64,000 bases of DNA from a virus (IMGVR_UViG_3300011008_000023:1-64000); one strand, 5' to 3'; numbered from the stretch's first letter, positions 24,055-41,795 are shown. A program made the numbers and translations. Notes: generated from the letters alone by a model not told the origin.

Positions 24055-27000
24055 ATGAGTGTATGTGTAAATACTAATTCTAAAGAATTTAAGGATACTG
24101 CTAAGAGATTAGATATTAGTGAGTCCTCTTTAGAAAATATTGTACATGAGTATATGAATACCGAGGGGAATGTCAATTCATTCCCTTCGGATTCTTATAT
24201 TTTGTCTAAAGTTACTGGTGAACCCCTTACTGAGATTTCTGAGAAAGCTCAAAAATTAATTGATTTAAAATATAGTAGACCATTTGTTGTAGATACCTAT
24301 GAAGAGGCTAGAGCTATAGCAAATGAAATGTCTCAGTATTTTGACCCAAAGCATATAGGAATAAAAGAAAACCATAGTGGCAAATATGAGGTTTCACTTG
24401 CTGCAATGAAAACTCTTATAAAAGAACAATATAAGGGAAAACTAATCTTTGCCCAATCTGGCACTGGTAAAACTAGTATTGCGGACAATGTTAATTTAAT
24501 TGACTCTGATTACTTATTAGGACAAATACTTGGGGTGCCTACATCATTAGCTGGCGATGCCTTTAAGTTACTTGGGTTTAATGAGAAACGAGAAATTGGT
24601 GCTAAATATAGAGAGTTAATTAGACAGAAAATTGCAGAAGGTAAAACTGTAGTTACTGCTAATTTAAGTATGATGTCTGAAGCAGATGTTATAGTATATA
24701 ATGAATCTGCTGAATTATCTAATGCAAGAACATCTGCAGAGGATAGAGCTAATCAGTTTACTAATAACGAGTACCAAATAGAATCTCTTAATAGAATTAA
24801 TGAGTTTCTTGCTCAAAACCCTAATACTGAGGCACATAAGTTAGGAGCGGGACAGTTTCTAAGTAGTGTTATTCTTAATGACCCCAACTTTAATGTATTT
24901 ACAGATAGAGTTCAGAATAACACTCTTAATAATATGCTGAATGACTTTGTTCATAATTTTGGTATTAATATAGAAGAGTATCAGGGAGATATTCCTTTAT
25001 TTAATGCTGTAGACAGAGTCATTAAAGCTAGGAGTGCAGAAGACCTTCCAGATGCGGTTGGAGAAGCCGTTGCTTTTATGATGCAATATAATCCAGATGT
25101 TAAGAATTATATTGCAGAGAGAGTTGTTGAAGATGGTAAATTTACAAGAGAACAAATGTTTGACTCTAAGGGTAGGGTAAAACATATTTATAACACCACT
25201 CCATTTGCTCCAGTTAAAGCTGATTATTTTAAAGAGGTAGGAAAAGAAATAGCCAAGCAACTTAGAAGACTTTATGCAGAAGCAAATAATATACACACAG
25301 AAGAAATTAAAGACCCCTTTATTAAAAGAATTTGGAATATTATTTCAGAATTCTTTAATAAGATTTTACCTAGAAAAGAAATGGTGTCCTCTCTTAGTTT
25401 AGCTCAAGAGAGATTAACTAACTATGCTAAAAAAACAGCAAGAGGAATATTGTCTAATAATGAAGGCCTTATAATAGCTTCTTTAAGCAAACCTGGAGAA
25501 AAAGGAGAAGCAAAACTTGCTACTCCGGTAAATGTATATGAAGCATTCAAAAATAATCCCTATGAAAGGAGTATTATTGAGAAAATGACTTCTGAAGGTA
25601 TACAATTAGCTGGTTCAACTTCTATAGCTATTTATGGACGAGTGCTTCGCCCAGCAGAAAATCCTTTTCATGATTTGGATTTTGCTTCTCCAAATTGGAC
25701 AGCAGCCCAATTGGAAGATATGTTAAAACGCCAATTCACAAATTATCAATCAACTAATGTCATATCAGATGACTCTGGTGAAGTAACAACTAGAAGTTAT
25801 GTTATCTTAAATAGACCATTCAGTATAGAACCATCTAAGTTGGGTGAGAGTTTCTTTAGACTAGTGGATAATGAGACTGGAGAGGTTCTTGGCTCTCTTA
25901 ATGGGAAGAAAACAGAATTTGTTTCACTTTCTGAGGGTGTTGAAGGAAAGGTATTAGACTTTTTTGTCACTCCTGATAAATATGCCCCTCTTACATATAA
26001 TTACAATGGTGTAGATTATCTTATTTCAAATCCTAAAAATGCTTTAGATGCTAAGATATCTTGGATGAGATTAAAGGATATCTTTGACTTTAATAGAGCA
26101 ATAATGAATGATTTTACTCCTACAGAGTTACCATTAGCATTAAGAGAATATTCCTCAGAAATGCAGGAAATAAAGGATGCTGCAATTAGCAATGGTACCT
26201 TTATGAAAGCACCAAATGGAAAGTCAACCAATCTTACTGAGAGACAGTGGCTCCAAGTTAGGACTAAAGCATTTAAAGACTGGTTTGGTGATTGGGAGAG
26301 AGCCAGTGAGTTTAATACTTCTTCTAGTATTAATAAGTTTAACATCTCTGCAATAGACACTTCCAGAGTGGATATTAAAGAAGTGGATAAGGCTTGGAGA
26401 AGTGACCCAAATCGTAAAAACAAAACTCTAAGAATTTATATTAAAGACCAGCATAACAAAGGGTATTTTGAATTAGTAAAAGACGAAGAGTTTGGACAAT
26501 ATAGTGTTCATTTTAAAACTTCAAAAGAGGGAGCTAAATACAATGCTGAAAATACAGACTTTACTACTAAAGAAGAAAGAAAAATTCTCTTTGAAGAGCT
26601 TGTAAAAGCAATTCCAGAGGGTGCTATAGTATCTACTTGGGGCAGTCTTTCTGAGGATGGTGTAAGGGGGCTGAATAATGTTGGTAGAGACATGTTACAG
26701 ATTGGAACAAGAGAAGTAACTCTTAAATCCAATGGTGATTCCTTCAAAATTCCAATCTACAGAAAAGGCAGTGTAGTTTCTCAAGTGGTTGATAACAATG
26801 GTGAGCCTTTGGTTGTTTATCATGGTAGTAGTAAAAAGTTTAGAGAATTTGCGTCTAAATACACTATAGGAGAAGACAGTGGATTCTTTTTTAGCTCAGA
26901 TAGAAAATATGCAGAACAATTTGGGCAAGAGATGTATCCGGTATTTTTGAATATGAGAACTCCTATGGTGGCAGGTGACATACCATTACATAGAGACACA

Positions 27001-30000
27001 TTGTATTCTATTTTTGCAGAGAGTCAGGAGTCTGTAGACTATATGAATGCTGCTGACGGTATTATAGGAAATGACATCCCTGATGGGAAATTAACTCCGT
27101 CAACAGGCTTTGAATTCATGGTGTATAAACCAAACCAAATAAAATCTGCTACTGAAAACTCCGGTGAGTTTGATGCTCAAACTAATGATATATATTATAA
27201 TATTGAAGGAAAGTCTCTTAGAGAATTTTTAAGAGATAAAGGTCTTATTCATACATATGACCCCTCTTTAGGAAATACTGATGCTAAGGCAATGTATGTT
27301 ACTAAGGGAGATGGCACATATTCTATGAAGTCTATTATCAATGAAATCTATACAACTCTAAGGATGAATGGTATTTCTCCTACTGCTGTGAGTTTTGAAA
27401 GAACTAAGGAAGGAAATGCCATGAGGGTCATATTTAATAATAGAGAAGATGCTATTTTAAAAGAGAGAAATAAGAAGCTAGCAGATATAAAGAAAACTGT
27501 AGATTTCTTACAAGCTAGAATTCCCGCCCTTAAAGGAAGAGTACACTATGCAACAATAGAAGAAGCAGAGAATGCTTTAGGGAGAAAACTTAAAGCCAAT
27601 GAAAATAGCTTTGTAAAGAATGGTCAGGTATATCTTATAGGTAGAAGATTCACCCAAGACATTGCTATTGAAGAGTGTTTGCATCCATTTACAGCCACTC
27701 TTAAATATGAGAATCCTTTCTTGTATAATAGATTACTTGCTGAAGCTAGAGAAACTTTTCCTAAGCTTTGGGAAGACATTGTTTCTAATTACTCTAACAA
27801 GGATTTCTCTGTTGCAGACCGTGAGAATGAGTTAATTACTCAGGCTTTAGCTCGTAATTTTAGGGAAGTGTATAATACAACAGAAGAATCTCAGAGAAAA
27901 ACCTTTGTACAATATGCAAAGCAGTTTATCAATTGGTTTAGAAACTTATTCTATAGAGTTAATCCTATGACTGGTAATCAAATTATTGATTTGGATACCA
28001 TTAAGCCTGATATGACTTTTAGAGAATTAGCAGAGTTAATAAATACATCTGATACTGAGTTCTCTGTAGGATTTGAAGAGAAGACTAGATTCAATAAAGA
28101 AAGACTTCAAATTAGTGATTATGAGAAAGAATTCATCACTGAAAGCATTGTACTTCCTGGAGTATCTTCAGAAACTCTTAAGAAAGTAAGTGTATTGTGG
28201 GATGATACTTTTTCTTCAGAAAATTCACCATATGAAGAGGTAACTATACCACTGTCTACTTGGAGTTCTCTTGCTGTGGATTCTCCTGTCCATGTTGGTA
28301 AAGATGTTAGTGACGCAGCTAAAGCCTCAGATAAAATGGCCTCACAAACTTCAGTGCCTTCTTTAAATATTCTTTCTGAACTATATGAATCGGAATATGA
28401 AGAACCTTTTGAATTTAATAATAGAACAGTAACTCTTCCCAGGAGTGCTCTTAATGTTGCCAAAATTGCTAAAGAAATAAGTAATAATTCTGAGGAATAT
28501 GCCTCCTTTATGGATGCAGTATATGCTGCTCTAAGAAGTAGTAACCTTAATTTAGACGCCTCTATTATATCAGATGTAGAAGCTATACAATTCATTATGG
28601 ATGAAATGGAGAACTTTGGGGACTTCCTTTCTTTGGTTGGCGGAGAATTCTATTATTCTGATAGCAGACAGGGACTCTTATTTGATGAAGAGGGTAACCC
28701 TACAGAAGATGCTCGTGTTGATGAAGATGGACTATCAGTAGTTAAGCCTGTAGAGGTAAGACCTGAGTTATCTAAATTCCAAGATGCTACATCGAAAATG
28801 ATTACTCAATTAAATAATCTCCTTGATAGTGACTTAATGTCTAACACTGAGGTGAGACATGTTGCAGAGCAAGCTGTATATTTCTTAAGTGATAGTATTA
28901 CAGATTTTCTAGAAAATCCATCCAGAGTATTTGAGATATTTCCTGAGCTGGGAGTTAAAGAGGGTAAACCAATGACTGCAGAAGAGCAGCAGAAAGAGAT
29001 TGAGAGAATAAAGGGAATGAGTAGAGTAGAATTAGCTAAATATCTTACCCCAGAAAGGCTAATTGAATTTACTAAAGCAAGGTTGTTTTCCCCAGAGGGA
29101 AATCCAAATATTAATAATAGAAAACTTATTAAGAAAGCACAGCTTATTAGAGACAACTTTGATGCTATTATTAGATTTGCTAATGATGCATTTGCTATTG
29201 TAGAAGACTTTGCTATTACCTCTGTAGACAATAAACTTTCTATAGTAGAGGACATGGTACCTACTACTGAGGACTATAATAATACAAATGATGCAGCTAC
29301 TATTTTAGAGAATGAAGGCAGCTTACAGGAGCATTGGCAAATTGAGTCAAGAACTCTTGATATAATGTCATTAATGTCTCAGCTAGTTAAGCAAGCTTTA
29401 AATAAATGTTTCCAAATAAGAATTAATCCAGAAACTGGTGTTGAAGAGTATGTTCTTAGTGAATTTGGAATAGCAGAGAGAATGAATGCTAAGGATGCTA
29501 CAGCTTCTATTCTTAGGTGGACAAGAGGTGCAGAGAGCCTAAGTCACATGCTTCAAATACTTGATAGTAAGAGTGCAGAGAATCCTTGGGTCAAGCAAAT
29601 TACTGATAGACTTAAAGATAATAGTGGAAATGAAGCTGATTTTCAGAGCCAATTCTACGGAGTCTTTGCAAAAGCCTTCCAGCCATATTCTATAATTCTA
29701 AGAGAAAAGAATAGCAAAACAAATGAGTATGAATATAAAAGCATCCAAGTTAATCAACACCCAGCTTTAACAGATGCTGTTCAAGCTATAGAAGTGGCCT
29801 TCAAGACTAATAACCATCCTTTATTTGACAATATGAAAATAAGGAAGGATTCACTTGATACTCTTACTGCAATTACTGATACACTGTTTGAGAAGGCTAA
29901 AAATAAACTTGAAGAAAATGACAGAGCCGAAATAGTTGACCTAATACTTAAGGCTGCAACTGCTTTGGGACACACAACTGACGCTAATCTTGTTAATTTA

Positions 30001-33000
30001 GCACTTGATAGTAACGCCACATTTAATACCTTAGTTAATAAATTAAAAGCTATTTCAGCTAATTTAAATGCAGCATTAACTAAGGAAAATTATGACCCAT
30101 TCAAATTTAAAGGAGAAAACAGTATTGGTGGATACCTTAGAGATTTCTTAAAGCCTCTTACTGAGAAATTAGAGGAAACTGCAGTGTCATCATTCTATGA
30201 CAGTGGTAAGATGTATCAATCTTATGTTACTCCATCATATCTCACAGTAATGATGAACCATTTTACTAGTGAAGATGCTAGATTTCAAGAGTGGTTAGAT
30301 ACAGAGTATGGTCAATATGCATGGTTTAAGAATTCTGATGGTAGCTGGAGAAATGTATGGCTAGAAACTCTTGATGGAATGCCTTTGGAGAGTACTCCTT
30401 CACAGACAGGAAGAAAAGATTTATTTAAGCATAAAGTGCAGCTGAATTTCAACAAGCACAACTACATGAAAAATATGTCTGATGTAGAGTATGCACTATC
30501 CATTATTTCAGAATATTTCTCAGAATTTAATAATGCTAAAGGTAATACAGTTCCTGTATGGTATAGAGTACCTATGATGTCTAATAAACCATCTTCTGAG
30601 TTCTTAAGGATGTATGCTTATACTGGAGCCTTTATGAAACCCAAATTAGTGGATGGTTTTAGTAGAATATTCCAACAAGAGCTTAGTAGAATTCAAACAG
30701 TTGATATTAGAGACTATGATAAGAAGAATCCTAATTTCATCAAGAACTTTGATAAGAATGGTAAGAAGTTCATGATGCTTGATTTCTTTAATAAATATTT
30801 AGAGAATGGAAGTAGTAGAAATACAGAATTAGGAAACCTGATTAATAAGGCAATTAAAGAAGGAACTGCAAGCTTAACTTCAGAAGAAAACTCTAAGATG
30901 AGTCAACTTGTTGCAAAAGAAATTCAGACAAGTATGGATGCTAAAGCTGATGCTATTATCACAAGTTGGAAGTCTAATGGAATATTTGAAGGTGCAAAAC
31001 AAATTGCTAATGTTGGAAAAGAGGATGCTGCTGTAGAGACTAAACTTAGAGAGTTTGTGTGGAACGACACCTTCGCTGCTATGAATATTCTAGAGCTTAC
31101 TATCACAGACCCTGCATTTTATAAAGATGCTGAGGATTTACAGAAAAGGTTAGCACAAATTCATGCTCCAGGTATTAGAGCTAATGTAGAAGCTACTGAC
31201 TATAGTGGTAAGAGAGTTACTGATGGTAAATTTAGAACTATTCTTCTTAAGGACTTTGATGACTTTGTCTCTAATATTAAAGATAATTTAAGAATTGTTT
31301 TTGATAGAAAGCTTAAGGAGCTTGAGAATAGTGGTGTCTCTAAAGAAGATGGTAAATATAGAGCTGCAGCTGCTACTTATGAGAATATTATAGAGCAATT
31401 CAACTACATTAATGTTGCAGATGCTCAAGGATATTCTTCTCCAACTTCTTATAGAAAGAAGGCTTTTATATTTGGTAAATGGAGTAGAAAATCTGAGGAA
31501 ATATACAATAAACTTAAGGAGGGCAAATATACATATAATGATTTGCAAACTGCTTTTCAGCCACTTAAGCCTTTTGTATATGGTCAGATATCTAAACCTG
31601 GAATTGATGTTGCTAGAAGAGATATTGCCACTCCTTTAACTAATTTAAAAGTTCCTGTTCAGTTTAAAAACTCTGAGTATCTTCTTATAATGGCTGATGC
31701 TATCCTTCAGGGAGAAGACACTGGAAAACCTAATCTTCTTAGAGCAATCTATGAAGTGATGGAGGAAAGTGCTGAGAAAGATAGTACTAAGGGTATTGAT
31801 ACTATTCAGTTTGAATCTACCTGTAAATCTGGTTTAATGGCTGCTATCGACATTAAGCAGTTTTATAATGTGAAGGGGGGCGAGACTATGGCTAAATTAG
31901 CCTTAACTCAAGCCATTTATAATGAAGATGGAAGCTACAACACAGATACTTATGTTTATGAAGTGCCTTTTGAAAACTATGCAATTCAGCAGGAAGTTCC
32001 TGAACACTTTAAAGACCATTATCAAGCACATGGCTCTCAGATAAGATATATCATTCCTTCAGACTTAGAATCTGTAAATAGTGAGGGTGAAGTAGTAACT
32101 TATAACTACTTTGACAGAGGTGAAGAAAAAAGACTTACAGCTGAAGAGTTTAAGGCAGAATATGAAGAGAACATTGCTCTGAATATTAATGCAAGTATTG
32201 AAGACCTTGCAGCACAATTAGGAATTGGAAATGACTTTATAAGTAAGAAAGATAGAAACATTGCACTGTCAAATATACTTCTTAAAGAAGTTCTTTCTTC
32301 CCCTAGATATGGTGCTGAGTTAGCTGCTGCCTGTACAGTTAATAGTGAAACTGGAGAATTTAATATTCCTCTTGGTGACCCTATTCAAGCAAAGAGAATT
32401 GAACAGCTCATTAACTCTATTATAAAAAATAGAATTAATAAACAAGAAATTGCTGGAGGTCCAGTTGTTCAGGTTACTAATTTTGGTACTTCCAGAGAAC
32501 TTAATATTAGATTTAAGGACAAAGATGGAAATTTACTTAAAACTAGAGCTGAGTGGGATAAAGAGAGACAAAAACCAACTGGAGTTAATTCTACATTTGC
32601 TACTGTAGCACCCTATTATAACACCAGAATTACCAATGAAAATAAAGAGGATATAACTAGAGCTGTAGAAAGAGATTTTAAAGAACAGGCTAATAGAATT
32701 GCTAAATCTCTCGGATTATCAATTAAAGGCATCTTTACTAATACTGGTGGTTTTCAATTTCAAGAAGGAAAAACAGCAGGACAACAAGTTAGAGAACTTT
32801 CTTATACCTTTGAGTTTAATACTCTTGATACTGAGAAGGTAGACATGTTTGCTTCTTTACTTGGTGACCTTGGGCATGAAAGACAAGAATCAGTTATATC
32901 TTATAATGCCGTTGATACTGCTGAAGAAGCAGATGCTCTTGCTTTTAAGATATCAGTAAATGATATTAAGGGTGTGGCTGATTTAATAGAACAATCTGGT

Positions 33001-36000
33001 TTTACTGACTACACACTTAATGAGTCATCTAAAGAAATAACAATACTGGCATTTTCTAAAGATGCACAAGAATTTGGAGATAAGTTTGATGTATTAATTA
33101 ATAATTTAGGAAATAATTACAATGGAACAGAAAGAGAATATATCCAATCAAGGTACTTGGATTCAACAGCTAGAAGAGAGGCTTATGAAACATGGAGTAA
33201 AACCAGGGAAGTTTCTGCACGGGAAAACCAATCTTTATATTCCGAAGAACAAGGAACAGAAGAAATAGCAAATACAGTACTCTCTAATATAGATGTGCTT
33301 AATGACGAAGATTATAAGCGTTATATAAAGGAAAATCAAGCAGGAATTGCATACTATGAAGTATTTGCTCCTATCTTTAGCAATGAACTCTTTGAGAAAT
33401 TTGCTGATAAAAATGGTAACATTGATATAGAGGTTATTGAGAAAATCAATCCAGACCTTCTTAAGATGATTGGTTATAGAATTCCTACTGAGGATAAGTA
33501 TTCTATGGCACCTCTTAAGATTGTAGGCTTCTTACCCAGAGAAGCTGGTGATGGTATTATGCTACCTAATGATATTACTCTATTAACTGGTTCTGACTTT
33601 GATGTTGATAAATTCTACTTAATGAGAAAAGAAAGTAGTATTATAATGCGTCAGTTGGGTCCTGAGAGTACAAATGTTGAAAACTTTGACCAAGCAGCTA
33701 GGGAATACACTAAGAATCACAGAGAAATTCTTGAAAAGCACTTAAAGAATTATATCTATCAAAATTCTTCTAAGGCACCTTTTAATCAAGCAATTTTTCT
33801 TACTGAAGAAGAGGAAAGTGAAGCTACTGAGAGAGCCACAAAAAGAACTGATTATAGAAGATATGCTGAAAATAAGAGACATGAGTCAGTAATAGCTAAT
33901 ATTAATAGAGGTAGAGAACATGCTGACAAGAATGCAGAAAGAAGGGCTCAAGAGAATAAGTTCTCTGAGAGTCAAGAAGCAAGAGTATATGACCAATTTG
34001 ATAAAGCAATTGAGAGAGAAAATGCATATCACCAAAGAAAACTTAATTCTATAGAAGCAGATGCTGCTGATAGTGTTAGTGAAGGCTTAAAGAAAGCACA
34101 AGAAAGAAAGATTAATAACATTATTCGTGACTTCTTAGAGAGTCCTCTCAGTAAACAATCTGACCCAATGCTTAAAGCTCTTAGAGATGAGTATATTAAG
34201 TATATGTTTGATTATGTTGAACCTACTGAGGGAACAACTTATAGAAACAATAAAATAGTTGATATGTCTTGGGCAGTACTTACCAATGAAACTACTGCAT
34301 CTAAGATGCTTAATCCAGGTGGATTTGAGCCTCAAAAGAGAATGGGTTACTTAATTAGTGCTTACCAAAATCCTAGTGTACATATGACTTGGGAGCAACT
34401 CAATGATGTTACTAGTATTGATGAATTGAAGGATTTATGTTATACTGATAAGAATCTGTGCTTTATTGATACTCATTTACAATTCTACAAACAGAACAGT
34501 GCTGCTGCAACTGCGCTTGGAATGGCAGCAGTTCAGAAAGTAGCGCATGCTGTCTTAGAAAGTAATGGCTTTAGAATCAATGTTAGTGATGCTCTAGGAT
34601 TTGAAGAAGATGAATTCTTCTCTATTGCTGGTAAAGATTTTATGGGAGAAATGGAGATTGATAGTAAATATGATGATGAGGGCAATTTAATTGGTAGGAC
34701 TTTAGGAGAATTTGTGGCAATGTTTGCAGATGCTGTAAAAGACCCTGTAGCTAATCTAATGAATATAAACAATACCACTATGCCAATTGTAACCACATTG
34801 ATTAGATTAGGAATGCCCTTTGAGAAAGTTGCACTGTTTATTTCACAACCTATAATAAAAACAGTTTTATCATTGTATAATTCAGAAAATGTTACTAACT
34901 TTGTTAGGTTATCAGATGTAATTAATAAGGTACTCACAAGTATAGAAAAAGATTATCATATTGAAAAAGATTCTGTTTTAAAAGAACTTAATTCTCTTTC
35001 TGAAGAAGAAATGACTAAGAACTTAAGACGTGTAGAAGGAGAAACCAATATGCAGGAGGCAGTGGTAACGGATTATAAAGTATTAAGGTTTTTCCGTTAC
35101 ATCACATCTATATCTGAAGCACTTAAAGGCCCCACACTTGCTACTAGATTTAACTCAATTAGTAATGCCGTTGGACCTCTGATAATAGATAACCTAATCA
35201 TGGAGTATCAAGTAAAGTCTAGAGATTTTGAGAATCTTTATGATAAAGATGGTAACCGTGCTGACTTTGATACTATACTTGAGAAGCATCCCATATTAAA
35301 GAGCTTTTATGCAACTCTTAATATAGGTAGGGAGTTATTTGAGGATATGCCTGCTAATAGTACGAACTTTAGAGATATGCTAGACAGAACTAATGATGAT
35401 TTAAAGAAAGTGTTATATGGTGATAGAAAACTCCTAGGAGAGTTAAGTGACTTTTATCAATCTTATTTACTTGTTGCTTCAGGAGTTGTTCCTGCAGAGG
35501 CTACTCAAGACCACCCTCATCAAGGACTTAAGTATTATATTGAGAAATTCCCCTCAGATTTTATAAGAGGTAGAGCAAAGGAGGTCTTCAAAGGAAATCC
35601 CCTTATAGATGCAATTAAGTTAGATATCCAAAAGGGAAGAGCAGTTCTTAAAATTGATACTACGGGACTCACAACTCAAGATAAAGAGAGACTTGGTGAT
35701 GGATGGACAGATTTATATCGAAGTGGAGAAAGAGGTAGAAAATTAGCAGAACATTTATTCTACTATAATTTCTGGAGAACTGGTATAGGGTTTAGTCCAA
35801 AATCATTTATGGGGCTTTTCCCTACAAGACTAAAAAGTAAGATTCCTGGATACAATGAAGCATTTACTGTACATAATACATCATTTGCAAGGAATGTAGT
35901 TGGCAACCAAGTATTAAGTCAATTTGTTAGAAATAATGCAGATAATAATAAACTTGTTCCAAAAGTTGCTATAGGAAATAAGGGTACAAATCCTACTATA

Positions 36001-36558
36001 GAAAATGGATTATACACATTTAAAGGAGAAGATTATGGAGCTGTAAATGATAAATTCTACATTAAAATAAAATCTGGTAATAGAACTATTTTATTGGAGA
36101 GAGTTTCAAAAGATACTAAGGGACGAAGTGTATCCTTTAAAGAACTTAGTCTTTTGGGCAACAATGGTGAGTACTTTGAAGCATCAACGGACGTTATGTA
36201 TCAACCTCTTAGTGAGACTACAGAAACTAAAGAACAAATTAATGATGGGCAAATGCAAGAAGTTTCTCCTGCAGAAGTACAGTCAGGTGATACTCCTGTA
36301 AAGAGTCAAGAACCTACAGAGGAAGAACAATTCAAGAGAGCTACTAAGATTAAAAATATGCTCTTAAAAATGTTTATGATGTCAGGAAGAAATGAAGTAG
36401 AAGCTCAAAGAAAATTAGATGAGTTTAAAGCTAAGAGTGAAGATGAAAAAGCAAAGCTTAAAGGTCCAATGAAGAAATTTATTGCTAATAAATTTGAGCA
36501 ACTTGGCATAAAATATAATGAGAAGCTTCTTGATGAGATGTATGAAAATTTATGTTAA
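24055..36558 (+). CDS. Virion-packaged RNA polymerase polyprotein (4167 aa) with accessory domains
   Basis: RIPTEDKYSM...LTGSDFDVDK catalytic DxDxD motif (DFDVD at 33595-33609); NVADAQGY and ADAVKDP motifs of crassvirus vRNAP. N-terminal third contains P-loop, NTase-like, ART-like and zincin-like segments. Confidence 0.9.
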   Translation: MSVCVNTNSKEFKDTAKRLDISESSLENIVHEYMNTEGNVNSFPSDSYILSKVTGEPLTEISEKAQKLIDLKYSRPFVVDTYEEARAIANEMSQYFDPKHIGIKENHSGKYEVSLAAMKTLIKEQYKGKLIFAQSGTGKTSIADNVNLIDSDYLLGQILGVPTSLAGDAFKLLGFNEKREIGAKYRELIRQKIAEGKTVVTANLSMMSEADVIVYNESAELSNARTSAEDRANQFTNNEYQIESLNRINEFLAQNPNTEAHKLGAGQFLSSVILNDPNFNVFTDRVQNNTLNNMLNDFVHNFGINIEEYQGDIPLFNAVDRVIKARSAEDLPDAVGEAVAFMMQYNPDVKNYIAERVVEDGKFTREQMFDSKGRVKHIYNTTPFAPVKADYFKEVGKEIAKQLRRLYAEANNIHTEEIKDPFIKRIWNIISEFFNKILPRKEMVSSLSLAQERLTNYAKKTARGILSNNEGLIIASLSKPGEKGEAKLATPVNVYEAFKNNPYERSIIEKMTSEGIQLAGSTSIAIYGRVLRPAENPFHDLDFASPNWTAAQLEDMLKRQFTNYQSTNVISDDSGEVTTRSYVILNRPFSIEPSKLGESFFRLVDNETGEVLGSLNGKKTEFVSLSEGVEGKVLDFFVTPDKYAPLTYNYNGVDYLISNPKNALDAKISWMRLKDIFDFNRAIMNDFTPTELPLALREYSSEMQEIKDAAISNGTFMKAPNGKSTNLTERQWLQVRTKAFKDWFGDWERASEFNTSSSINKFNISAIDTSRVDIKEVDKAWRSDPNRKNKTLRIYIKDQHNKGYFELVKDEEFGQYSVHFKTSKEGAKYNAENTDFTTKEERKILFEELVKAIPEGAIVSTWGSLSEDGVRGLNNVGRDMLQIGTREVTLKSNGDSFKIPIYRKGSVVSQVVDNNGEPLVVYHGSSKKFREFASKYTIGEDSGFFFSSDRKYAEQFGQEMYPVFLNMRTPMVAGDIPLHRDTLYSIFAESQESVDYMNAADGIIGNDIPDGKLTPSTGFEFMVYKPNQIKSATENSGEFDAQTNDIYYNIEGKSLREFLRDKGLIHTYDPSLGNTDAKAMYVTKGDGTYSMKSIINEIYTTLRMNGISPTAVSFERTKEGNAMRVIFNNREDAILKERNKKLADIKKTVDFLQARIPALKGRVHYATIEEAENALGRKLKANENSFVKNGQVYLIGRRFTQDIAIEECLHPFTATLKYENPFLYNRLLAEARETFPKLWEDIVSNYSNKDFSVADRENELITQALARNFREVYNTTEESQRKTFVQYAKQFINWFRNLFYRVNPMTGNQIIDLDTIKPDMTFRELAELINTSDTEFSVGFEEKTRFNKERLQISDYEKEFITESIVLPGVSSETLKKVSVLWDDTFSSENSPYEEVTIPLSTWSSLAVDSPVHVGKDVSDAAKASDKMASQTSVPSLNILSELYESEYEEPFEFNNRTVTLPRSALNVAKIAKEISNNSEEYASFMDAVYAALRSSNLNLDASIISDVEAIQFIMDEMENFGDFLSLVGGEFYYSDSRQGLLFDEEGNPTEDARVDEDGLSVVKPVEVRPELSKFQDATSKMITQLNNLLDSDLMSNTEVRHVAEQAVYFLSDSITDFLENPSRVFEIFPELGVKEGKPMTAEEQQKEIERIKGMSRVELAKYLTPERLIEFTKARLFSPEGNPNINNRKLIKKAQLIRDNFDAIIRFANDAFAIVEDFAITSVDNKLSIVEDMVPTTEDYNNTNDAATILENEGSLQEHWQIESRTLDIMSLMSQLVKQALNKCFQIRINPETGVEEYVLSEFGIAERMNAKDATASILRWTRGAESLSHMLQILDSKSAENPWVKQITDRLKDNSGNEADFQSQFYGVFAKAFQPYSIILREKNSKTNEYEYKSIQVNQHPALTDAVQAIEVAFKTNNHPLFDNMKIRKDSLDTLTAITDTLFEKAKNKLEENDRAEIVDLILKAATALGHTTDANLVNLALDSNATFNTLVNKLKAISANLNAALTKENYDPFKFKGENSIGGYLRDFLKPLTEKLEETAVSSFYDSGKMYQSYVTPSYLTVMMNHFTSEDARFQEWLDTEYGQYAWFKNSDGSWRNVWLETLDGMPLESTPSQTGRKDLFKHKVQLNFNKHNYMKNMSDVEYALSIISEYFSEFNNAKGNTVPVWYRVPMMSNKPSSEFLRMYAYTGAFMKPKLVDGFSRIFQQELSRIQTVDIRDYDKKNPNFIKNFDKNGKKFMMLDFFNKYLENGSSRNTELGNLINKAIKEGTASLTSEENSKMSQLVAKEIQTSMDAKADAIITSWKSNGIFEGAKQIANVGKEDAAVETKLREFVWNDTFAAMNILELTITDPAFYKDAEDLQKRLAQIHAPGIRANVEATDYSGKRVTDGKFRTILLKDFDDFVSNIKDNLRIVFDRKLKELENSGVSKEDGKYRAAAATYENIIEQFNYINVADAQGYSSPTSYRKKAFIFGKWSRKSEEIYNKLKEGKYTYNDLQTAFQPLKPFVYGQISKPGIDVARRDIATPLTNLKVPVQFKNSEYLLIMADAILQGEDTGKPNLLRAIYEVMEESAEKDSTKGIDTIQFESTCKSGLMAAIDIKQFYNVKGGETMAKLALTQAIYNEDGSYNTDTYVYEVPFENYAIQQEVPEHFKDHYQAHGSQIRYIIPSDLESVNSEGEVVTYNYFDRGEEKRLTAEEFKAEYEENIALNINASIEDLAAQLGIGNDFISKKDRNIALSNILLKEVLSSPRYGAELAAACTVNSETGEFNIPLGDPIQAKRIEQLINSIIKNRINKQEIAGGPVVQVTNFGTSRELNIRFKDKDGNLLKTRAEWDKERQKPTGVNSTFATVAPYYNTRITNENKEDITRAVERDFKEQANRIAKSLGLSIKGIFTNTGGFQFQEGKTAGQQVRELSYTFEFNTLDTEKVDMFASLLGDLGHERQESVISYNAVDTAEEADALAFKISVNDIKGVADLIEQSGFTDYTLNESSKEITILAFSKDAQEFGDKFDVLINNLGNNYNGTEREYIQSRYLDSTARREAYETWSKTREVSARENQSLYSEEQGTEEIANTVLSNIDVLNDEDYKRYIKENQAGIAYYEVFAPIFSNELFEKFADKNGNIDIEVIEKINPDLLKMIGYRIPTEDKYSMAPLKIVGFLPREAGDGIMLPNDITLLTGSDFDVDKFYLMRKESSIIMRQLGPESTNVENFDQAAREYTKNHREILEKHLKNYIYQNSSKAPFNQAIFLTEEEESEATERATKRTDYRRYAENKRHESVIANINRGREHADKNAERRAQENKFSESQEARVYDQFDKAIERENAYHQRKLNSIEADAADSVSEGLKKAQERKINNIIRDFLESPLSKQSDPMLKALRDEYIKYMFDYVEPTEGTTYRNNKIVDMSWAVLTNETTASKMLNPGGFEPQKRMGYLISAYQNPSVHMTWEQLNDVTSIDELKDLCYTDKNLCFIDTHLQFYKQNSAAATALGMAAVQKVAHAVLESNGFRINVSDALGFEEDEFFSIAGKDFMGEMEIDSKYDDEGNLIGRTLGEFVAMFADAVKDPVANLMNINNTTMPIVTTLIRLGMPFEKVALFISQPIIKTVLSLYNSENVTNFVRLSDVINKVLTSIEKDYHIEKDSVLKELNSLSEEEMTKNLRRVEGETNMQEAVVTDYKVLRFFRYITSISEALKGPTLATRFNSISNAVGPLIIDNLIMEYQVKSRDFENLYDKDGNRADFDTILEKHPILKSFYATLNIGRELFEDMPANSTNFRDMLDRTNDDLKKVLYGDRKLLGELSDFYQSYLLVASGVVPAEATQDHPHQGLKYYIEKFPSDFIRGRAKEVFKGNPLIDAIKLDIQKGRAVLKIDTTGLTTQDKERLGDGWTDLYRSGERGRKLAEHLFYYNFWRTGIGFSPKSFMGLFPTRLKSKIPGYNEAFTVHNTSFARNVVGNQVLSQFVRNNADNNKLVPKVAIGNKGTNPTIENGLYTFKGEDYGAVNDKFYIKIKSGNRTILLERVSKDTKGRSVSFKELSLLGNNGEYFEASTDVMYQPLSETTETKEQINDGQMQEVSPAEVQSGDTPVKSQEPTEEEQFKRATKIKNMLLKMFMMSGRNEVEAQRKLDEFKAKSEDEKAKLKGPMKKFIANKFEQLGIKYNEKLLDEMYENLC
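33122..33268 (+). CDS. Possible nested 48-aa ORF in the +1 frame inside the vRNAP gene
   Basis: ATG...TAG ORF MEQKENISNQGTWIQQLEERLMKHGVKPGKFLHGKTNLYIPKNKEQKK, preceded by an AT-rich leader and TAAGTTTG (33081-33088). Confidence 0.3.
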   Translation: MEQKENISNQGTWIQQLEERLMKHGVKPGKFLHGKTNLYIPKNKEQKK

Positions 36559-36561
36559 TAT

Positions 36562-39500
36562 ATGGCAAGACGTAGAAAAGCAAGTTGTAGAATGGTTCCT
36601 GAAGTACCGGGGACTAATGAAGATAGTAAAATGTACTTAAAGCTTAGTGAGCTAGTAAAAAATAGACCACTCACAAATTTCATCTATGCCAGCTACCTCC
36701 AAGCGGGGGTAGCTGACCAGATGGATGCTTTGGGTTATAGAAGAAATCCACAGAATCAACATTCTGCAAAAGATGTTTATAGTTTCTTTGAGGTGGGAAG
36801 TATGAAGAATCTATTAAGCATTAAGGCCCAATCTAAATCTATAGGATTCATGAATTCTTCTGGTGCTTTAGTAGACTTTACTGCTGAGGAGGCATATAAT
36901 AAAGCTCAAATGTTTAATGAGTCTAACAAAGGTAGGGTTGCATATGTTGTACAGCATGGAGACATGTTTAACATCTTAATTGATGATAAAGACTCTAGAA
37001 CTCAATCAAAACAAGCTGAAGTTGGAGAAGCTTTGTCTTTATGGAGTACCCTATCTTCAGAATTAACTACTAGAGGTATAGACCTTAAAGAGCTTAATAA
37101 AATTAATCCTAAGATAGTTAATCCTGGCTCTGTTGCAGATTTTATTAGGAATTTGAGTACATATAAATTTGTTCCTAATGATGGATTCTCTGTTAAAGAT
37201 ATTGAGATGTTACTAGCTTTAAATCCTAGACTCCCTATTGTTAATAATGTATTAGCAAGAGGCTGGGGAGATAGAGCAGAAACAGCACAGAGAATGTATG
37301 ATATATTACACACTTCTGGAGCCACTAGTTCAAATATAAATTTAGTTAATAATGTTTTAGATGCAGTTAAAGCATTACCTGGGTTTAATGTAACTGACTT
37401 AAGGAATAACTTGACCACTTCTAAAATAGAATTTAGAAAGACTGATTTGTCTACGCAAATAAAGTATAAATTATCAGAACTAGATAGAAAATACGGTATT
37501 GAGAGAGATGTCTTTATCAGAAATTCTAGTTCTATTACAAAGTATTCAGAGGCAATTGCTGATGCTATACTGTCTTTGCATAGACAAATTAGAACAATAG
37601 AAGCTAAGAAAGGAAGAACAGATAGAAGTAATAGACTAAGAGTCCTTAAAGATAAGTTAGCAGAGGAACTAAAAACTAAACAATACGCTGCAGGATTAGT
37701 TGATTTCCTAAGTACTGCAAACAATGATTTGCAGCAAGTTAATAATATTGTTAACAATGTACCTACAACTGGAACTGGACTTGAATATGCGAGTGTCCTT
37801 TCTGAAGCAATTACTAAAGCTGTAAATATAAAGCACGCTTACTATGATGTTATATCTGCTATTGCCAATTCTGATTTAATTAATGACTTTGTGTTAAATG
37901 ATACTGAGAAAGAAACTCTTAGAAATTTATCTCTTAGTTTAAAAGAGACTTTTGACTCTATGGATAAGAAAGTCATTGATTTAGAAAGAGAGGCAATGTA
38001 TAACATAGGGAGAGAGTTCATTGGGGAGCACAATGCTTTATATGGTAAAGACCTTGTAGATATAATAAATATGAATGAAGCTGACACATCAATGCTAGAT
38101 TACTTATATAGTATTGGTAGGTCTTCTAGTGCTGTTATATCTATGTTAGGTGCCATTATTAGAGATGCACAAAATAACAGAGACAAAGAACTTGCAAAGA
38201 TTAGCTTACAGATAAGAAGAGAGGATTACCTTCTTGCTAAAGATGGAAAAGACTCTTCATTTATGTATGATGACAAAGGAAGAATTGTTAGTCAGTATGA
38301 TTGGGATGGATATTTTAAAGAGAGGAGTAAATATGCTAAAGATTTAACGAGAGCTGGATTTAAGAGAAATAGTGTTGAATTTAATGCTGAGATGCAGCTG
38401 TGGGAGGACAATAATACTGTAGAAGTGATTGTTGACCAGCAAAGTGGCAGAACAGAGAAGATGCCAAGATTTTATTTAAGCTATGACTTTAGGACAGGAT
38501 GGAGTGCAGCTCAGAGAAGGTACTATGAGAATATGATGAAAATAAAGGGGCAACTTGGAACACTTCTTCCTAATTATGCTCAGCATCATTACATTGCTCC
38601 TCAGAAAAGAACTACTTGGGACCAAGTATTAAAAGAGGGTTTGAAGAAAGAAAGGTCTTTTAAGGATGTTTTTGATTGGTTTCTTGAAAATACAAAGTTA
38701 GCAAAGATAAAGGAGGGTGACACTAGATTTAGACGAAATGGTATATATGTTGAGGGAGAAGAGTCTATTGCTTCAATTAGTGACTATGACAATACTGTAT
38801 TGAGACAGATACCGCTATTTTATGTGAATAAACTTGAGGAAAAAAACCTATCACATGATTTCTCTTCTGCTCTACAATCTCTTGCCAGCACTACTTTTAA
38901 TTATGATGCTATGAACAGTATTAGAAGTATAGCAGAGATGATGACAGACTATGCTGCAAGGATAACTCCTGTAGATAAAGATGTTACTGATAGACCTTTA
39001 GTAGATATTTCTTACAACAACGGTCTTAGTGTAGTAGTGAATCTTCGTAAATCTGCAGAAAGCAGTAACACTTCTAGTATAATAGACTCCTTTGTTCTTA
39101 AACATATATTTGGGGTTGAAAATAAATCTGAGGGTAAATTAGCTGTTATAGGAGCAAACTTAATTGGGTATACTTCATTAAAGGGATTGGCTATTAATGT
39201 GAAGGGAGCTTTAACTAATAAGTATGTAGGTGTTATTCAAACTATGATTAAAGCTCTAGGAGGACAATACTATGACATGAAAGATTGGTTAAAAGCAGAG
39301 GCTATTTTATTAGGAGAGCAAGGAGCTTCTACTACAGGACTTGTTATTGGTGGAGCTATAGGAGGATTACCGGGTGCTGCAGTAGGATTAACTACAGGTA
39401 CTATTGCTGGTGCTAAAGGAATGTATGGCAAGTTTATGGATATTCTTACAAACAACAAAAATAGCAAAGATAGCTTAATTGCAGAGTTTTTTGACCAATC

Positions 39501-40746
39501 TCAAGAGGTCTTCTCTGATTTAAGTGATACGAGATATCATAGAACTGTGTTTGGTAAGTTATTTGGGGCCTTTAGTCCAATGGCAATGTATCAACGTGGT
39601 GAATATTGGATACATATGCTTAATGTATATGCTACACTACTCCATGAAAAAGTGGTTCAATATGACCCAACTACTGGTAAAAGAAAAACCATTTCTGTAT
39701 ATGAAGCTCTAGAAAAGGGAGAAAAAATTGAAGGAAATAGTGAATTAAAAATAAAGGATAACATTTATAAATTGGATGGCACTAAAATAGAAAATTTATC
39801 TGATAGTTATTTTGATGCTCTAAAAAGAAGAATTCGCTATATAAATCAAAACTGCCACGGTTCTATGAATAAAGAAGATAAGGGCCTTTTGCATCAGTGG
39901 ATGCTTGGCAAGATGGCTATGAATTTCCGTCAATGGATGGTAGAGCACTACTCTAGAAGATTTAGAGAATTACACTGGGATGAGTCTATCAGAGATGTAG
40001 ACTTAAGCAATTTCTATCATAATACTGAAGTTCGAGTTAATGACAAGAAAACTAAATTAATAGATGCCTTAGAAATGGTAGACAATGGCTTAGGAGATGG
40101 GAGTTTTCATTATGAGATTAAAGCTGGAACCACCACATTAGAGGGAAAAGCTTTAACAGATGAAATCTTGGATACTATGCTAAAACAGTATGCAGAGGAT
40201 TCTGGTTGGAGACGAGGATTTAAAACTGATGCATTAGTGACTTTTATTAATTTTGTAAAGGAAAGACAGGAATACGGCACTAAAGCAAATGCTTATTGGA
40301 ATAGTTTATCTGAAACTCAAAAAGCAGATGTCAAACAAGTTATGGGAGAAAGCCTTATGCTTCTCTCTTTAATGGGTTTGGCTGGAGTAATGGGTGACCC
40401 AGATGACCATAAGGGAGAATTCTTTTATAGGCTGTGGATGTATGTAGTTAGAAGATGTCTCTTTGATGAAAAAGCAACTACTATTCCTGGAGCTATTGTA
40501 GAAGCAAAAACTATTATTAATAACCCCATTGCTTCTACACAAACAGTTGCTGGTTTATTATATCCAATATTGGGAATTACTGATATAACAGAGACTATTA
40601 AGTCAGGCAGATACAAGGGGTGGAATAAATATGGAAGAAATGTCCTGAAGTATACAATTCCATTTTATGCACAAATTGACCAATTATTGAATATTGGAGA
40701 AGAATCCTCCGTATTTAGTACCTTTGAAAATCAAATTACAAGATAA
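36562..40746 (+). CDS. Giant ejected virion protein (1394 aa), probable membrane-channel component
   Basis: Third giant gene; Gly-rich hydrophobic stretches (GLVIGGAIGGLPGAAVGLTTG; LMLLSLMGLAGVMG). Confidence 0.7.
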   Translation: MARRRKASCRMVPEVPGTNEDSKMYLKLSELVKNRPLTNFIYASYLQAGVADQMDALGYRRNPQNQHSAKDVYSFFEVGSMKNLLSIKAQSKSIGFMNSSGALVDFTAEEAYNKAQMFNESNKGRVAYVVQHGDMFNILIDDKDSRTQSKQAEVGEALSLWSTLSSELTTRGIDLKELNKINPKIVNPGSVADFIRNLSTYKFVPNDGFSVKDIEMLLALNPRLPIVNNVLARGWGDRAETAQRMYDILHTSGATSSNINLVNNVLDAVKALPGFNVTDLRNNLTTSKIEFRKTDLSTQIKYKLSELDRKYGIERDVFIRNSSSITKYSEAIADAILSLHRQIRTIEAKKGRTDRSNRLRVLKDKLAEELKTKQYAAGLVDFLSTANNDLQQVNNIVNNVPTTGTGLEYASVLSEAITKAVNIKHAYYDVISAIANSDLINDFVLNDTEKETLRNLSLSLKETFDSMDKKVIDLEREAMYNIGREFIGEHNALYGKDLVDIINMNEADTSMLDYLYSIGRSSSAVISMLGAIIRDAQNNRDKELAKISLQIRREDYLLAKDGKDSSFMYDDKGRIVSQYDWDGYFKERSKYAKDLTRAGFKRNSVEFNAEMQLWEDNNTVEVIVDQQSGRTEKMPRFYLSYDFRTGWSAAQRRYYENMMKIKGQLGTLLPNYAQHHYIAPQKRTTWDQVLKEGLKKERSFKDVFDWFLENTKLAKIKEGDTRFRRNGIYVEGEESIASISDYDNTVLRQIPLFYVNKLEEKNLSHDFSSALQSLASTTFNYDAMNSIRSIAEMMTDYAARITPVDKDVTDRPLVDISYNNGLSVVVNLRKSAESSNTSSIIDSFVLKHIFGVENKSEGKLAVIGANLIGYTSLKGLAINVKGALTNKYVGVIQTMIKALGGQYYDMKDWLKAEAILLGEQGASTTGLVIGGAIGGLPGAAVGLTTGTIAGAKGMYGKFMDILTNNKNSKDSLIAEFFDQSQEVFSDLSDTRYHRTVFGKLFGAFSPMAMYQRGEYWIHMLNVYATLLHEKVVQYDPTTGKRKTISVYEALEKGEKIEGNSELKIKDNIYKLDGTKIENLSDSYFDALKRRIRYINQNCHGSMNKEDKGLLHQWMLGKMAMNFRQWMVEHYSRRFRELHWDESIRDVDLSNFYHNTEVRVNDKKTKLIDALEMVDNGLGDGSFHYEIKAGTTTLEGKALTDEILDTMLKQYAEDSGWRRGFKTDALVTFINFVKERQEYGTKANAYWNSLSETQKADVKQVMGESLMLLSLMGLAGVMGDPDDHKGEFFYRLWMYVVRRCLFDEKATTIPGAIVEAKTIINNPIASTQTVAGLLYPILGITDITETIKSGRYKGWNKYGRNVLKYTIPFYAQIDQLLNIGEESSVFSTFENQITR

Positions 40747-40762: not shown

Positions 40763-40806
40763 AAAAAAAAGAAAGCTAGTAAGTAAAAACTTACTAGCTT
40801 TTTTGT
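40763..40806. terminator. Bidirectional terminator between the convergent structural and replication blocks
   Basis: AAAGCTAGTAAGT-AAAA-ACTTACTAGCTTT perfect 13-bp stem (40772-40801), with an A-run on the left and a T-run on the right. Confidence 0.9.
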
Positions 40807-41637
40807 TTACACACTTTTTAATTGTTTTTCTAATTTCTTTGCAAGATACTGCATATCAGGATGAGCGTTGGGAGCAGTTCTTAATTCTAAGAATTTCTTC
40901 CAGTCACTCATATAGCCTGTCATAACCACTTCTGTTTTAAGGGTGTTTGGTAATATAGCTCTTGCTGTTTGAGGAGTTACGCCCCCCTTCATAGCATGCA
41001 TATATATTCTCTCAATTTCATCAAGACAATTGAGCATTTCATAATATGCATCACTACCTTTCCAGCCCTCTTTATCTGGCATTATAAAAGTAAGTTCATT
41101 GCCAAATTTATCCTTACTATAATTACAATACCTAGTTGATTCTTGGGCAAATGAGAATACTCTATGCCTTACAAGCTCGTGGCTCACACCTCTATCACAA
41201 GTAAATCTTACAGTAACTCTTTTATCATGAAACTCTGTTGGTTTACACAAATACTTAAGTAAATGTAACCAATTATTCTCATAAAGGACTCTGTAGTTAG
41301 TTGTAATATATGCTCCATAAGTACCTATGTCGTCTTTAGAGAAGTCATGGTTGGAATAAAACTTTGAATACTTATTAATTACTACATCATACATTTTAGG
41401 AGCAGTCTCTTCTTCAAAGTAGTTTATCCAAGGTACAAATAGATATACTGAGCCATGTTCTAACATAGCAGTATGCCCATTGTCAATCATTCTTTGAACA
41501 AATTCTTTACTAGAAGTTTCTGTTATTTTATTCTCTGATTTGTAACATGTTCTTCCAGCTATTTCAATTTGTTTAAAGATTCCATCAATGCCCTCTCCCT
41601 GAGGTATTATTTCTACTTTGGGTGTAATTAGATTCAT
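40807..41637 (-). CDS. thyX: Flavin-dependent thymidylate synthase
   Basis: ThyX signature RGVSHELVRHRVFSFAQESTRY; GHTAMLEH; ARAILP; LR...AHPD. Confidence 0.95.
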   Translation of the reverse strand: MNLITPKVEIIPQGEGIDGIFKQIEIAGRTCYKSENKITETSSKEFVQRMIDNGHTAMLEHGSVYLFVPWINYFEEETAPKMYDVVINKYSKFYSNHDFSKDDIGTYGAYITTNYRVLYENNWLHLLKYLCKPTEFHDKRVTVRFTCDRGVSHELVRHRVFSFAQESTRYCNYSKDKFGNELTFIMPDKEGWKGSDAYYEMLNCLDEIERIYMHAMKGGVTPQTARAILPNTLKTEVVMTGYMSDWKKFLELRTAPNAHPDMQYLAKKLEKQLKSV

Positions 41638-41795
41638 TTTTCTGGCTGTATTGAAATAATTTCCTTAATATCCCAGTACTCTTCTTCAACAAGTTCTTTT
41701 GCTTGGTTGTGGTTGTCTGCCATAACCCAAACATGAGATAAATCATTAGTATCATCTATATAAGATATATAGAATCTTTTCTTATGATTTTTCAT
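41634..41795 (-). CDS. Small hypothetical protein (53 aa), missing from the ORF track
   Basis: MKNHKKRFYISYIDDTNDLSHVWVMADNHNQAKELVEEEYWDIKEIISIQPEK; fills the gap exactly, with an ATGA overlap with thyX. Confidence 0.75.
   Translation of the reverse strand: MKNHKKRFYISYIDDTNDLSHVWVMADNHNQAKELVEEEYWDIKEIISIQPEK

Follow-up and report, generated by a model that had tools for sequence, protein, structure and literature searches.

We found that the virion RNA polymerase of a Crassvirales phage, encoded in the viral DNA stretch IMGVR_UViG_3300011008_000023:1-64000 (64,000 nucleotides, hereafter the window), carries within its polymerase fold an inserted module whose nearest solved structures are S-adenosyl-L-methionine (SAM) lyases. 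Homology of the module to the SAM-lyase fold is highly probable, and our structural models support its description as a new two-lobed branch of that fold used as injected cargo, with an enzymatic role that we infer. No phages of the human gut are more abundant than crassviruses, and to our knowledge their evasion of the dense restriction, bacteriophage exclusion (BREX) and clustered regularly interspaced short palindromic repeat (CRISPR) systems of Bacteroidales is largely unexplained.

A module inserted next to the polymerase active site

The module sits in a variable loop ~90 residues before the DFDVD motif of the polymerase, within a giant open reading frame (ORF) of 4167 amino acids (aa), and is bounded by two conserved anchors:

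24055..36558, plus strand: giant ORF, 4167 aa, a polyvalent protein in which N-terminal cargo domains are joined to a Crassvirales virion RNA polymerase; a single open frame whose C-terminal part matches Crassvirales genes
32503..32538, plus strand: upstream conserved anchor of the polymerase loop, NIRFKDKDGNLL, aa 2817-2828, kept in all aligned homologues
32578..33300, plus strand: inserted module, aa 2842-3082, missing from 114 of 119 homologues
33229..33321, plus strand: acidic linker back into the polymerase, modelled with low confidence (predicted local distance difference test, pLDDT, ~50 at model residues 222-238) and differing among P0001, P0003 and P0007
33322..33363, plus strand: downstream conserved anchor, YIKENQAGIAYYEV, aa 3090-3103, kept in all aligned homologues
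33595..33609, plus strand: DFDVD motif of the polymerase, aa 3181-3185, read from the sequence

Insertion was tested by BLASTP of both flanks on the 119 homologues, combined with an alignment of the site. The distance from anchor to anchor was 15–42 aa in 114 homologues and 261 aa in the giant ORF, and among the 119 the same insert (~260 aa, 54–58% identity) was found at the same site only in P0003 and P0007; the module also occurs there in three fragments (P0179, P0190 and P0145). Insert boundaries were clean in the site alignment, at roughly aa 2842-3082, and GC content was 0.336 for the insert compared to 0.340 for the ORF. The segment is thus an insertion and not a conserved core part of virion RNA polymerases. 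This agrees with the earlier note, made by eye, which had placed a SAM-lyase-like domain inserted in the polymerase at 32575-33300 (aa 2841-3082); all of the strings that it quoted are present in one intact ORF.

The flanks of the two insert-bearing homologues P0003 and P0007 were 61–79% identical to those of the giant ORF, while P0002, with 86% identical flanks, has no insert and a loop of only 17 aa. The lack of an insert in the homologue with the closest flanks implies recent precise loss or recombinational transfer of the module. Unrelated inserts occupy the same polymerase loop in other homologues, with 153 aa in P0008 and P0013 and 299 aa in P0057, and the loop is therefore an insertion hot spot. 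By eye, the inserts of P0008/P0013 (aa 2246-2400) and P0057 (aa 1818-2118) are ART-like and GNAT-like, respectively; Pfam gave no match on the loop inserts of P0008 and P0057. Effector modules in general seem able to dock in this loop.

SAM lyases as the nearest solved structures

We modeled the module with AlphaFold2 on a 34-sequence alignment (model residue n corresponds to aa n+2837). The model had a pLDDT of 88.6 and a predicted template modelling score of 0.84, and that of a second family member had a pLDDT of 90.5. Two lobes and a terminal helix were predicted:

32593..32913, plus strand: lobe 1, a SAM-lyase-like ferredoxin/PII-like core of beta-alpha-beta-beta-alpha-beta topology, model residues 10-116, from the AlphaFold2 model and its structural neighbours
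32935..33162, plus strand: lobe 2, a second beta-alpha-beta-beta-alpha-beta unit, model residues 124-199, from AlphaFold2 secondary structure
33163..33228, plus strand: C-terminal helix of the module, model residues 200-221, with the near-invariant R3040 (model R203; 33172-33174), from the AlphaFold2 model and family conservation

Each of the two models was compared with 48,161 PDB chains using VIA-align, with no Foldseek prefiltering. For the model of the insert, SAM lyases took three of the first five ranks:

VIA-align rank 1: 6zm9, Svi3-3 SAM lyase, at 8.6 (115/129, 20% identity)
VIA-align rank 3: 7ock, T3 SAMase, at 8.2 (133/152)
VIA-align rank 5: 9gab, SAM-AMP lyase, at 7.5 (102/129)

In the same search the model of the second member ranked Svi3-3 first, T3 SAMase second and the SAM-AMP lyase fourth, such that all three SAM-lyase representatives fell within the top five for both models. 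After structure re-alignment the top four chains were all SAM lyases. Foldseek assigned a probability of 1.00 to 8bb1_E and 6znb. For 6znb, identity was 21% over 116 columns and the template modelling (TM) score on the target was 0.57; the SAM-lyase matches of Foldseek overall had TM scores of 0.52–0.57 on the target and root-mean-square deviations (rmsd) of 4–6 Å. The alignment with T3 SAMase extended over model residues 3-165, with the first half of lobe 2 aligned to the C-terminal third of that enzyme. In the BFVD viral library, the top matches were pieces of large polyvalent proteins (TM on the query up to 0.78), followed by 125–165-aa proteins of T7-like phages, some of them annotated as S-adenosyl-L-methionine hydrolases. 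The structural similarity to SAM lyases that had been suspected from sequence was therefore recovered, with SAM lyases ranking first in both model searches.

These results indicate a ferredoxin-like/PII-like fold with SAM lyases as the nearest solved structures, and SAM lyases belong to the PII-like superfamily (PMC7877911, PMC12255297). No PII or CutA protein was among the 50 best entries of either wide search, although such lists cannot exclude the superfamily.

We also considered that the insert might be a generic tandem ferredoxin-like domain unlinked to SAM lyases, either a decoration or an unrelated effector, for which the ranking and the motif agreement described below would be coincidence or convergence. 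Consistent with this, there is no significant sequence or profile similarity to SAM lyases, the best Foldseek E-values belonged to tandem ferredoxin-like 'monooxygenase' proteins, and weak matches to the Pfam family SIMPL occurred in 4 of 34 family members (best E 0.0059). The 'monooxygenase' matches, however, had TM scores of 0.21–0.31 at an rmsd of ~15 Å, compared to 0.52–0.57 at 4–6 Å for SAM lyases, and chance would have had to bring all three SAM-lyase representatives into the top five of 48,161 chains with two separate models. Taken as a group, the tandem ferredoxin-like 'monooxygenases' and the pairs of ACT domains that led the Foldseek E-values were rejected as structural neighbours (TM 0.2–0.3, rmsd 11–16 Å). 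A generic fold is in our assessment very unlikely, also given the residue conservation that follows.

Conserved residues of the putative pocket

Three short strings of lobe 1 have putative counterparts in the active sites of known SAM lyases:

32746..32754, plus strand: G2898-G2899-F2900 (model G61-G62-F63), closing the long strand ahead of a T-loop-like hairpin; counterparts Svi3-3 G56-V57-Y58 and T3 G55-C56-Y57
32794..32802, plus strand: E2914-L-S2916 (model E77, S79), opening the strand that follows the hairpin; counterparts Svi3-3 E69-x-S71 and T3 E68-K-T70
32884..32892, plus strand: Q2944-E2945-S2946 (model Q107-E108-S109), in the loop after helix 2, at the B-loop position; counterparts Svi3-3 Q104-E105-S106 and T3 Q94-D95

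Conservation was counted over 125 domain copies. Q107 was present in every copy and G61 and E77 in 122 each, with P16 (122/125), R203 (120/125), S79 (118/125) and S195 (111/125) also strongly conserved. Position 63 was aromatic in 123 copies (Y 70, F 49, W 4; F in the giant ORF) and position 108 was acidic in 116 (E 99, D 17). Two residues after Q107, position 109 was A in 88, S in 25 and T in 9 copies, with Ser in the giant ORF, while position 111, four residues after Q107, was I in 100 and V in 15.

Only Gly56, Glu69 and Gln104 (Svi3-3 numbering) are strictly conserved among SAM lyases, and the Svi3-3 site is also lined by Tyr58, Ser71, Glu105 and Ser106, with the substrate under the beta5-beta6 hairpin and E69 as the key substrate-orienting residue (PMC7877911). 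G61, E77 and Q107 match the three strictly conserved residues in their order, approximate spacing and secondary-structure elements, and two accompanying residues are matched as well, namely the aromatic one at Gly+2 and the acidic one that follows the Gln. The pattern picked out by eye in the earlier note (G-x-aromatic, E-x-S/T, Q-E) thus proved to be made up of the most conserved columns of the family and to correspond to the conserved SAM-lyase residues of PMC7877911; the strings lie at aa 2887 (GLSI), 2897 (TGGFQ), 2913 (RELSY), 2935 (LLGDLG) and 2943 (RQESVI) of the giant ORF. Profile alignment with T3-like SAMases using hhalign paired G61/F63 with T3 G55/Y57, E77/S79 with E68/T70, Q107/E108 with Q94/D95, and the DYTLNE hairpin of lobe 2 with T3 CFTIDE, over the same ranges as the structural alignment; being concordant but not significant, this alignment was used only as support.

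A composite motif, G-x-[FYW]-x(8,16)-E-x-[ST]-x(22,38)-Q-[ED]-x-[VI], occurred once in the 4167 aa of the giant ORF, at aa 2898-2947, compared to an expectation of 0.02 per shuffled protein, with spacing windows that were fixed after viewing three families. A looser motif was found in 102 of the 125 domain copies and 42 of 44 T3-like SAMases, and 5 times in 328,022 residues of virion RNA polymerase homologues that have no such domain (~1 per 65,000). Both the coincidence of the three most conserved family columns with the three strictly conserved SAM-lyase residues and the sharing of one composite motif by the two families, at a low rate elsewhere, argue against a generic fold.

A mobile cargo domain of polyvalent proteins

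Searching 1.84 billion representatives with phmmer (clusters at 50% identity) retrieved 151 clusters at E ≤ 1e-3 and 23 at E ≤ 1e-30. Family members were mostly located in giant phage polyvalent proteins, at varied positions, and stand-alone members of 220–350 aa also exist. Among 85 carriers longer than 1000 aa, a crAss polymerase was detectable by BLAST in 14 and not detected in 71, and a sample of 21 of these polymerase-less carriers contained LPD38, ART-PolyVal, MuF_C, PBECR3 and ParB_N, domains of phage-type polyvalent proteins. In P0023, P0034, P0035, P0042-44, P0048, P0051, P0055, P0104, P0115 and P0117 the domain lies 1000–2000 residues upstream of the polymerase (29–46% identity). In P0194, a 684-aa fragment, it is found at aa 142-298, ~60 residues after DFDVD (aa 73-77), which is a second, independent insertion site within the polymerase. 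The module is an autonomous, mobile cargo domain of phage polyvalent proteins.

Three divergent stand-alone homologues have neighbours of other kinds: P0199 (L008:1207-2055) lies beside an SBF transporter and a fucose isomerase, P0254 (L015:6001-6891) beside GH115 and an esterase, and P0266 (L017:6001-6906) beside ABC transporters and RseC.

The domain was absent from most other resources that we searched. Pfam and PHROGs, run on the whole ORF and the insert, gave nothing on the insert except a 20-residue PHROG match (E 0.012), and none of the Pfam LPD models matches the domain. Tblastn of the inserted domain against 50,697 GenBank phage records, deposited crassvirus genomes included, returned no match, a pattern scan of 185,579 species genomes with a narrow alignment returned two contigs of metagenome-assembled genomes only, a single-sequence PDB search found nothing, and the ESM Atlas search had no usable match. 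The text of the polyvalent-protein catalogue (PMC5512222) does not mention SAMase, S-adenosyl, AdoMet, PII, GlnB or ferredoxin, and a full-text literature search yielded no paper linking SAM lyases to crass phage polymerases or polyvalent proteins. To the extent of these searches, a SAM-lyase-like module inserted in a virion RNA polymerase is without precedent.

Proposed function and alternative explanations

The polymerase would travel in the capsid and be released into the cell before the DNA or together with it, and the inserted domain would therefore arrive pre-made. Most likely it would bind SAM or a SAM-derived molecule in the pocket formed by G2898/F2900, E2914/S2916 and Q2944/E2945 and, in the case of SAM, would cleave it by an intramolecular lyase reaction to methylthioadenosine and homoserine lactone. 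Loss of SAM would blunt type I and type III restriction, BREX or a SAM-based signal before expression of any phage gene. We put the chance that the domain is an active lyase on SAM or a SAM derivative at slightly better than even, and that it is active on SAM itself at somewhat below even. On this basis, the crAss-like gut phage probably delivers a ready-made counter-defence enzyme at infection. No SAM lyase of Pfam family PF23780 and no DNA methylase of families PF01555, PF00145 or PF02086 was found in the phage genome, such that destruction of SAM would not hurt a methylation function of the phage.

Which molecule would be cleaved bears on a closely related alternative, namely that the same fold and pocket act on SAM-AMP, the second messenger of type III-B CRISPR systems, or on another low-abundance SAM conjugate, making the module an injected anti-CRISPR against the CorA-linked system common in Bacteroides. 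The hosts of crassviruses are Bacteroidales, and in B. fragilis type III-B with CorA is reported to be more common than any other CRISPR type (PMC10600005); moreover, a SAM-AMP lyase from a human-gut phage, fused to another domain, has been put forward as a candidate AcrIIIB4 (PMC12255297). The hairpin of the module is 3 residues longer than in Svi3-3 and T3, and the near-invariant R203 could, speculatively, bind phosphate. Stoichiometry would point the same way: in crAss001, six copies of each polymerase protein were offered as an illustrative capacity of the cargo space (PMC10172136), and so few injected copies could more plausibly deal with a scarce signal such as SAM-AMP, or act locally, than deplete bulk SAM. 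Residues after the conserved Gln argue in the other direction. In the SAM-AMP lyase, T110 and T112 (Q108+2 and Q108+4) contact phosphate and adenine, while SAM lyase has Ile at the second of these positions (PMC12255297). With positions assigned by offset from Q107, the giant ORF does not have the two Thr residues of the SAM-AMP lyase, and the prevalence of Ala at Q107+2 (88/125) and Ile at Q107+4 (100/125) across the family is the SAM-lyase pattern. SAM is therefore favored as the substrate by Ile at Q+4, Ala or Ser at Q+2 and the higher similarity to Svi3-3 than to 9gab, and we regard a SAM-AMP-directed role as improbable.

Several observations weigh against an active SAM lyase. The residues were equated with those of SAM lyases from the order of the motifs, the secondary structure and a profile alignment that fell short of significance (hhalign with T3-like SAMases, P 0.25, or 0.064 with four divergent SAMases added). 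Neither the domain nor lobe 1 matched PF23780 (S-AdoMet_lyase) at E ≤ 10, while T3 gp0.3 did so at 5.7e-42 (143 bits; cut-off 28 bits), and the family profile matched no SAM lyase in the PDB at E ≤ 10. F2900 stands where Svi3-3 uses Tyr, and the Y58F mutant of Svi3-3 has lower activity and lower stability (PMC7877911). The SAM lyases known so far form homotrimers and have their active sites at the contacts between subunits (PMC7877911), an assembly that may be out of reach for a domain enclosed in a 4167-aa protein; lobe 2 might stand in for a neighbouring subunit, or the giant proteins might associate with one another. Assuming the Svi3-3 turnover of ~10 per second (PMC7877911), we estimate that ~6 injected copies would need tens of minutes to consume a SAM pool of ~1e5 molecules. 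Finally, the stand-alone homologues P0199, P0254 and P0266 occur in bacterial chromosomal contexts and have signal peptides that by eye are lipoprotein-like, yet they keep the G/E/S/Q/R residues. They probably represent a cellular, exported branch, judging from sequence, and since exported proteins can hardly meet cytoplasmic SAM, the family may bind more than one ligand.

Regarding the other profile searches, the only family-profile match in the PDB was a designed repeat protein, which we judged spurious. PF23780 was listed for no member of the 34-sequence alignment, and when 401 genomes from a single phylum were scanned with PF23780, the two matches were below threshold and none could be used. 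By these profile searches, the domain lies outside PF23780 as currently drawn.

Retention of the conserved residues in exported homologues that cannot meet SAM would also fit a non-catalytic PII-like module that binds a ligand or protein, either a SAM or adenosine sensor that tunes the polymerase or a sequestrant of a host protein, with pocket residues serving binding only. The PII-like superfamily consists mostly of ligand-sensing regulators (PMC7877911), and T3 SAMase also acts by polymerising with MetK (PMC8406200). That the domain adjoins the catalytic motif within the polymerase, and does so at two separate sites depending on the lineage, is likewise in line with binding, as is the F that replaces the mechanistically implicated Tyr in 49 of 125 copies. 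Most carriers, however, have the domain far from any polymerase, many of them with no polymerase module detectable by BLAST, and a polymerase-regulating role therefore cannot be general. The lack of PII and CutA proteins among the 50 best structural matches also speaks against a binder, as does the identity of the conserved residues, which are those required by the unimolecular lyase reaction, a reaction that needs little beyond substrate positioning (PMC7877911). We consider a non-catalytic module unlikely, and continue to favor a lyase.

A more far-reaching model, which we offer as a long shot, is that the insert is the first example of a large, so far unannotated family (at least 151 clusters) of self-contained two-lobed SAM lyases shipped in injected polyvalent proteins, in which lobe 2 and the R203 helix would replace the trimer neighbour and allow the domain to work as a monomer. 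Such an enzyme would be aimed at scarce derivatives of SAM, with the SAM-AMP of Bacteroides type III-B CRISPR as one example, or at the SAM bound to restriction or BREX complexes where the DNA enters, and crassviruses would graft such modules into hot-spot loops.

If the lyase proposal is true, counter-defence would act before transcription of any phage gene, a small-molecule-destroying activity would join the known effector repertoire of polyvalent proteins, and the SAM-lyase fold would extend to a two-lobed, possibly monomeric architecture. The loop beside the polymerase active site would be a docking place for interchangeable effector modules, and more than 150 protein clusters now lacking any annotation would gain one. 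The family is readily testable, with small, soluble-looking domains, stand-alone homologues and established assays for SAM and SAM-AMP.

Genomic setting of the polymerase gene

The phage genome record is complete (98.6 kb, with terminal repeats). The giant ORF was assigned as a Crassvirales virion RNA polymerase based on the DFDxD motif, homology to crassvirus polymerase genes and a place in the gene order behind those for the muzzle and cargo proteins. According to 10.1101/2020.03.07.982082, crAss-like virion RNA polymerases have DFDxD as their catalytic motif. Its C-terminal part had matches in 109 phage records, mostly Crassvirales or crAss-like, the nearest being cr116_1 (Steigviridae, Pamirivirus; 57.5%). 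The 'putative RNA polymerase' genes of crAss001-like phages matched at 37.6%, and Cellulophaga phages also matched. A search of 5.8 billion proteins yielded 1640 homologues of the giant ORF, of 2.3–7.3 kaa, and was the source of the 119 homologues used in the insertion test. The solved phi14:2 gp66 had no direct sequence match to the giant ORF in a single-sequence PDB search.

The ORF is also a polyvalent protein, with an ART-PolyVal domain, the polymerase and the inserted domain in one chain of 4167 aa that adjoins the muzzle and cargo genes. These and other features of the window are:

26791..27171, plus strand: ART-PolyVal ADP-ribosyltransferase domain, aa 913-1039, within the N-terminal cargo of the giant ORF (Pfam PF18760, E 3.1e-19, 70.6 bits compared to a 31.2-bit cut-off)
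8048-12895: muzzle gene, upstream of the giant ORF
13003-15165: cargo-1 gene, upstream of the giant ORF
15170-16606: cargo-2 gene, upstream of the giant ORF
16617-24053: giant ORF of 2478 aa, with no Pfam match, between the cargo-2 gene and the polymerase gene
36562-40746: ORF of 1394 aa, with no Pfam match, directly after the polymerase gene

In crAss001, three polymerase-associated proteins are present in virions and were modelled as ejected cargo (PMC10172136). The 2478-aa and 1394-aa ORFs beside the polymerase gene presumably correspond to the remaining polymerase-associated cargo proteins of crAss001.

Relatives of the giant ORF bear NADAR, Kinase-PolyVal, PIF1-helicase or HD in place of ART-PolyVal, and the cargo set is therefore shuffled between lineages. 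Near the N-terminus of the giant ORF there is a Walker-A-like string, AQSGTGKTS (window ~24448-24480, aa ~132-142), for which Pfam gave no family. The homologous region of cr116_1 (NC_055882.1, 1789-12654) is annotated as three coding sequences (gp051, gp050 and gp049) and not as one ORF, which could reflect a genuine split of the gene or a difference in gene calling. Just after the cargo and polymerase block, at ~40800-42000 of the window, GC skew changes sign and gene orientation flips from plus to minus.

Comparison with known systems

The closest structural relative, the Svi3-3 SAM lyase (6ZM9, 6ZNB; PMC7877911), is a free-standing protein of ~145 aa whose homotrimers have their active sites at the subunit interfaces. 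The module differs in having lobe 2 and a C-terminal helix, with conserved S195 and R203 of their own, and in being embedded in an injected 4167-aa protein; it has no significant sequence match to Svi3-3, and the longer hairpin also sets it apart from this enzyme and from T3. T3 gp0.3 SAMase (7OCK, 8BB1; PF23780) is the product of the first early gene, is made in large amounts and polymerises MetK, whereas the module would be pre-made and delivered in few copies, and its identity to T3 SAMase is 8–11%. The type III-B SAM-AMP lyase of C. botulinum (9GAB) and the candidate AcrIIIB4 (PMC12255297) have Thr at Q+2 and Q+4, where the module has Ala/Ser and Ile. In the SAM-AMP lyase, W64 and F84 stack on the adenine of AMP and Y122 lies on the phosphate. 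Both the structural and the sequence similarity of the module to this enzyme are lower than to Svi3-3.

With regard to its host protein, the giant ORF resembles the polyvalent proteins of Iyer et al. 2017 (PMC5512222), which are giant injected chains of unrelated effector domains: it has ART-PolyVal, and other carriers of the module have LPD38, MuF_C, PBECR3, NADAR and Kinase-PolyVal. In contrast to those proteins, the cargo here lies within the polymerase fold and is not appended to the N-terminal string of domains. The polymerase itself resembles the crAss-like virion RNA polymerases (phi14:2 gp66; crAss001 gp47/gp49/gp50) in its DFDxD motif, its homology to Crassvirales polymerase genes and its position behind the muzzle and cargo genes.

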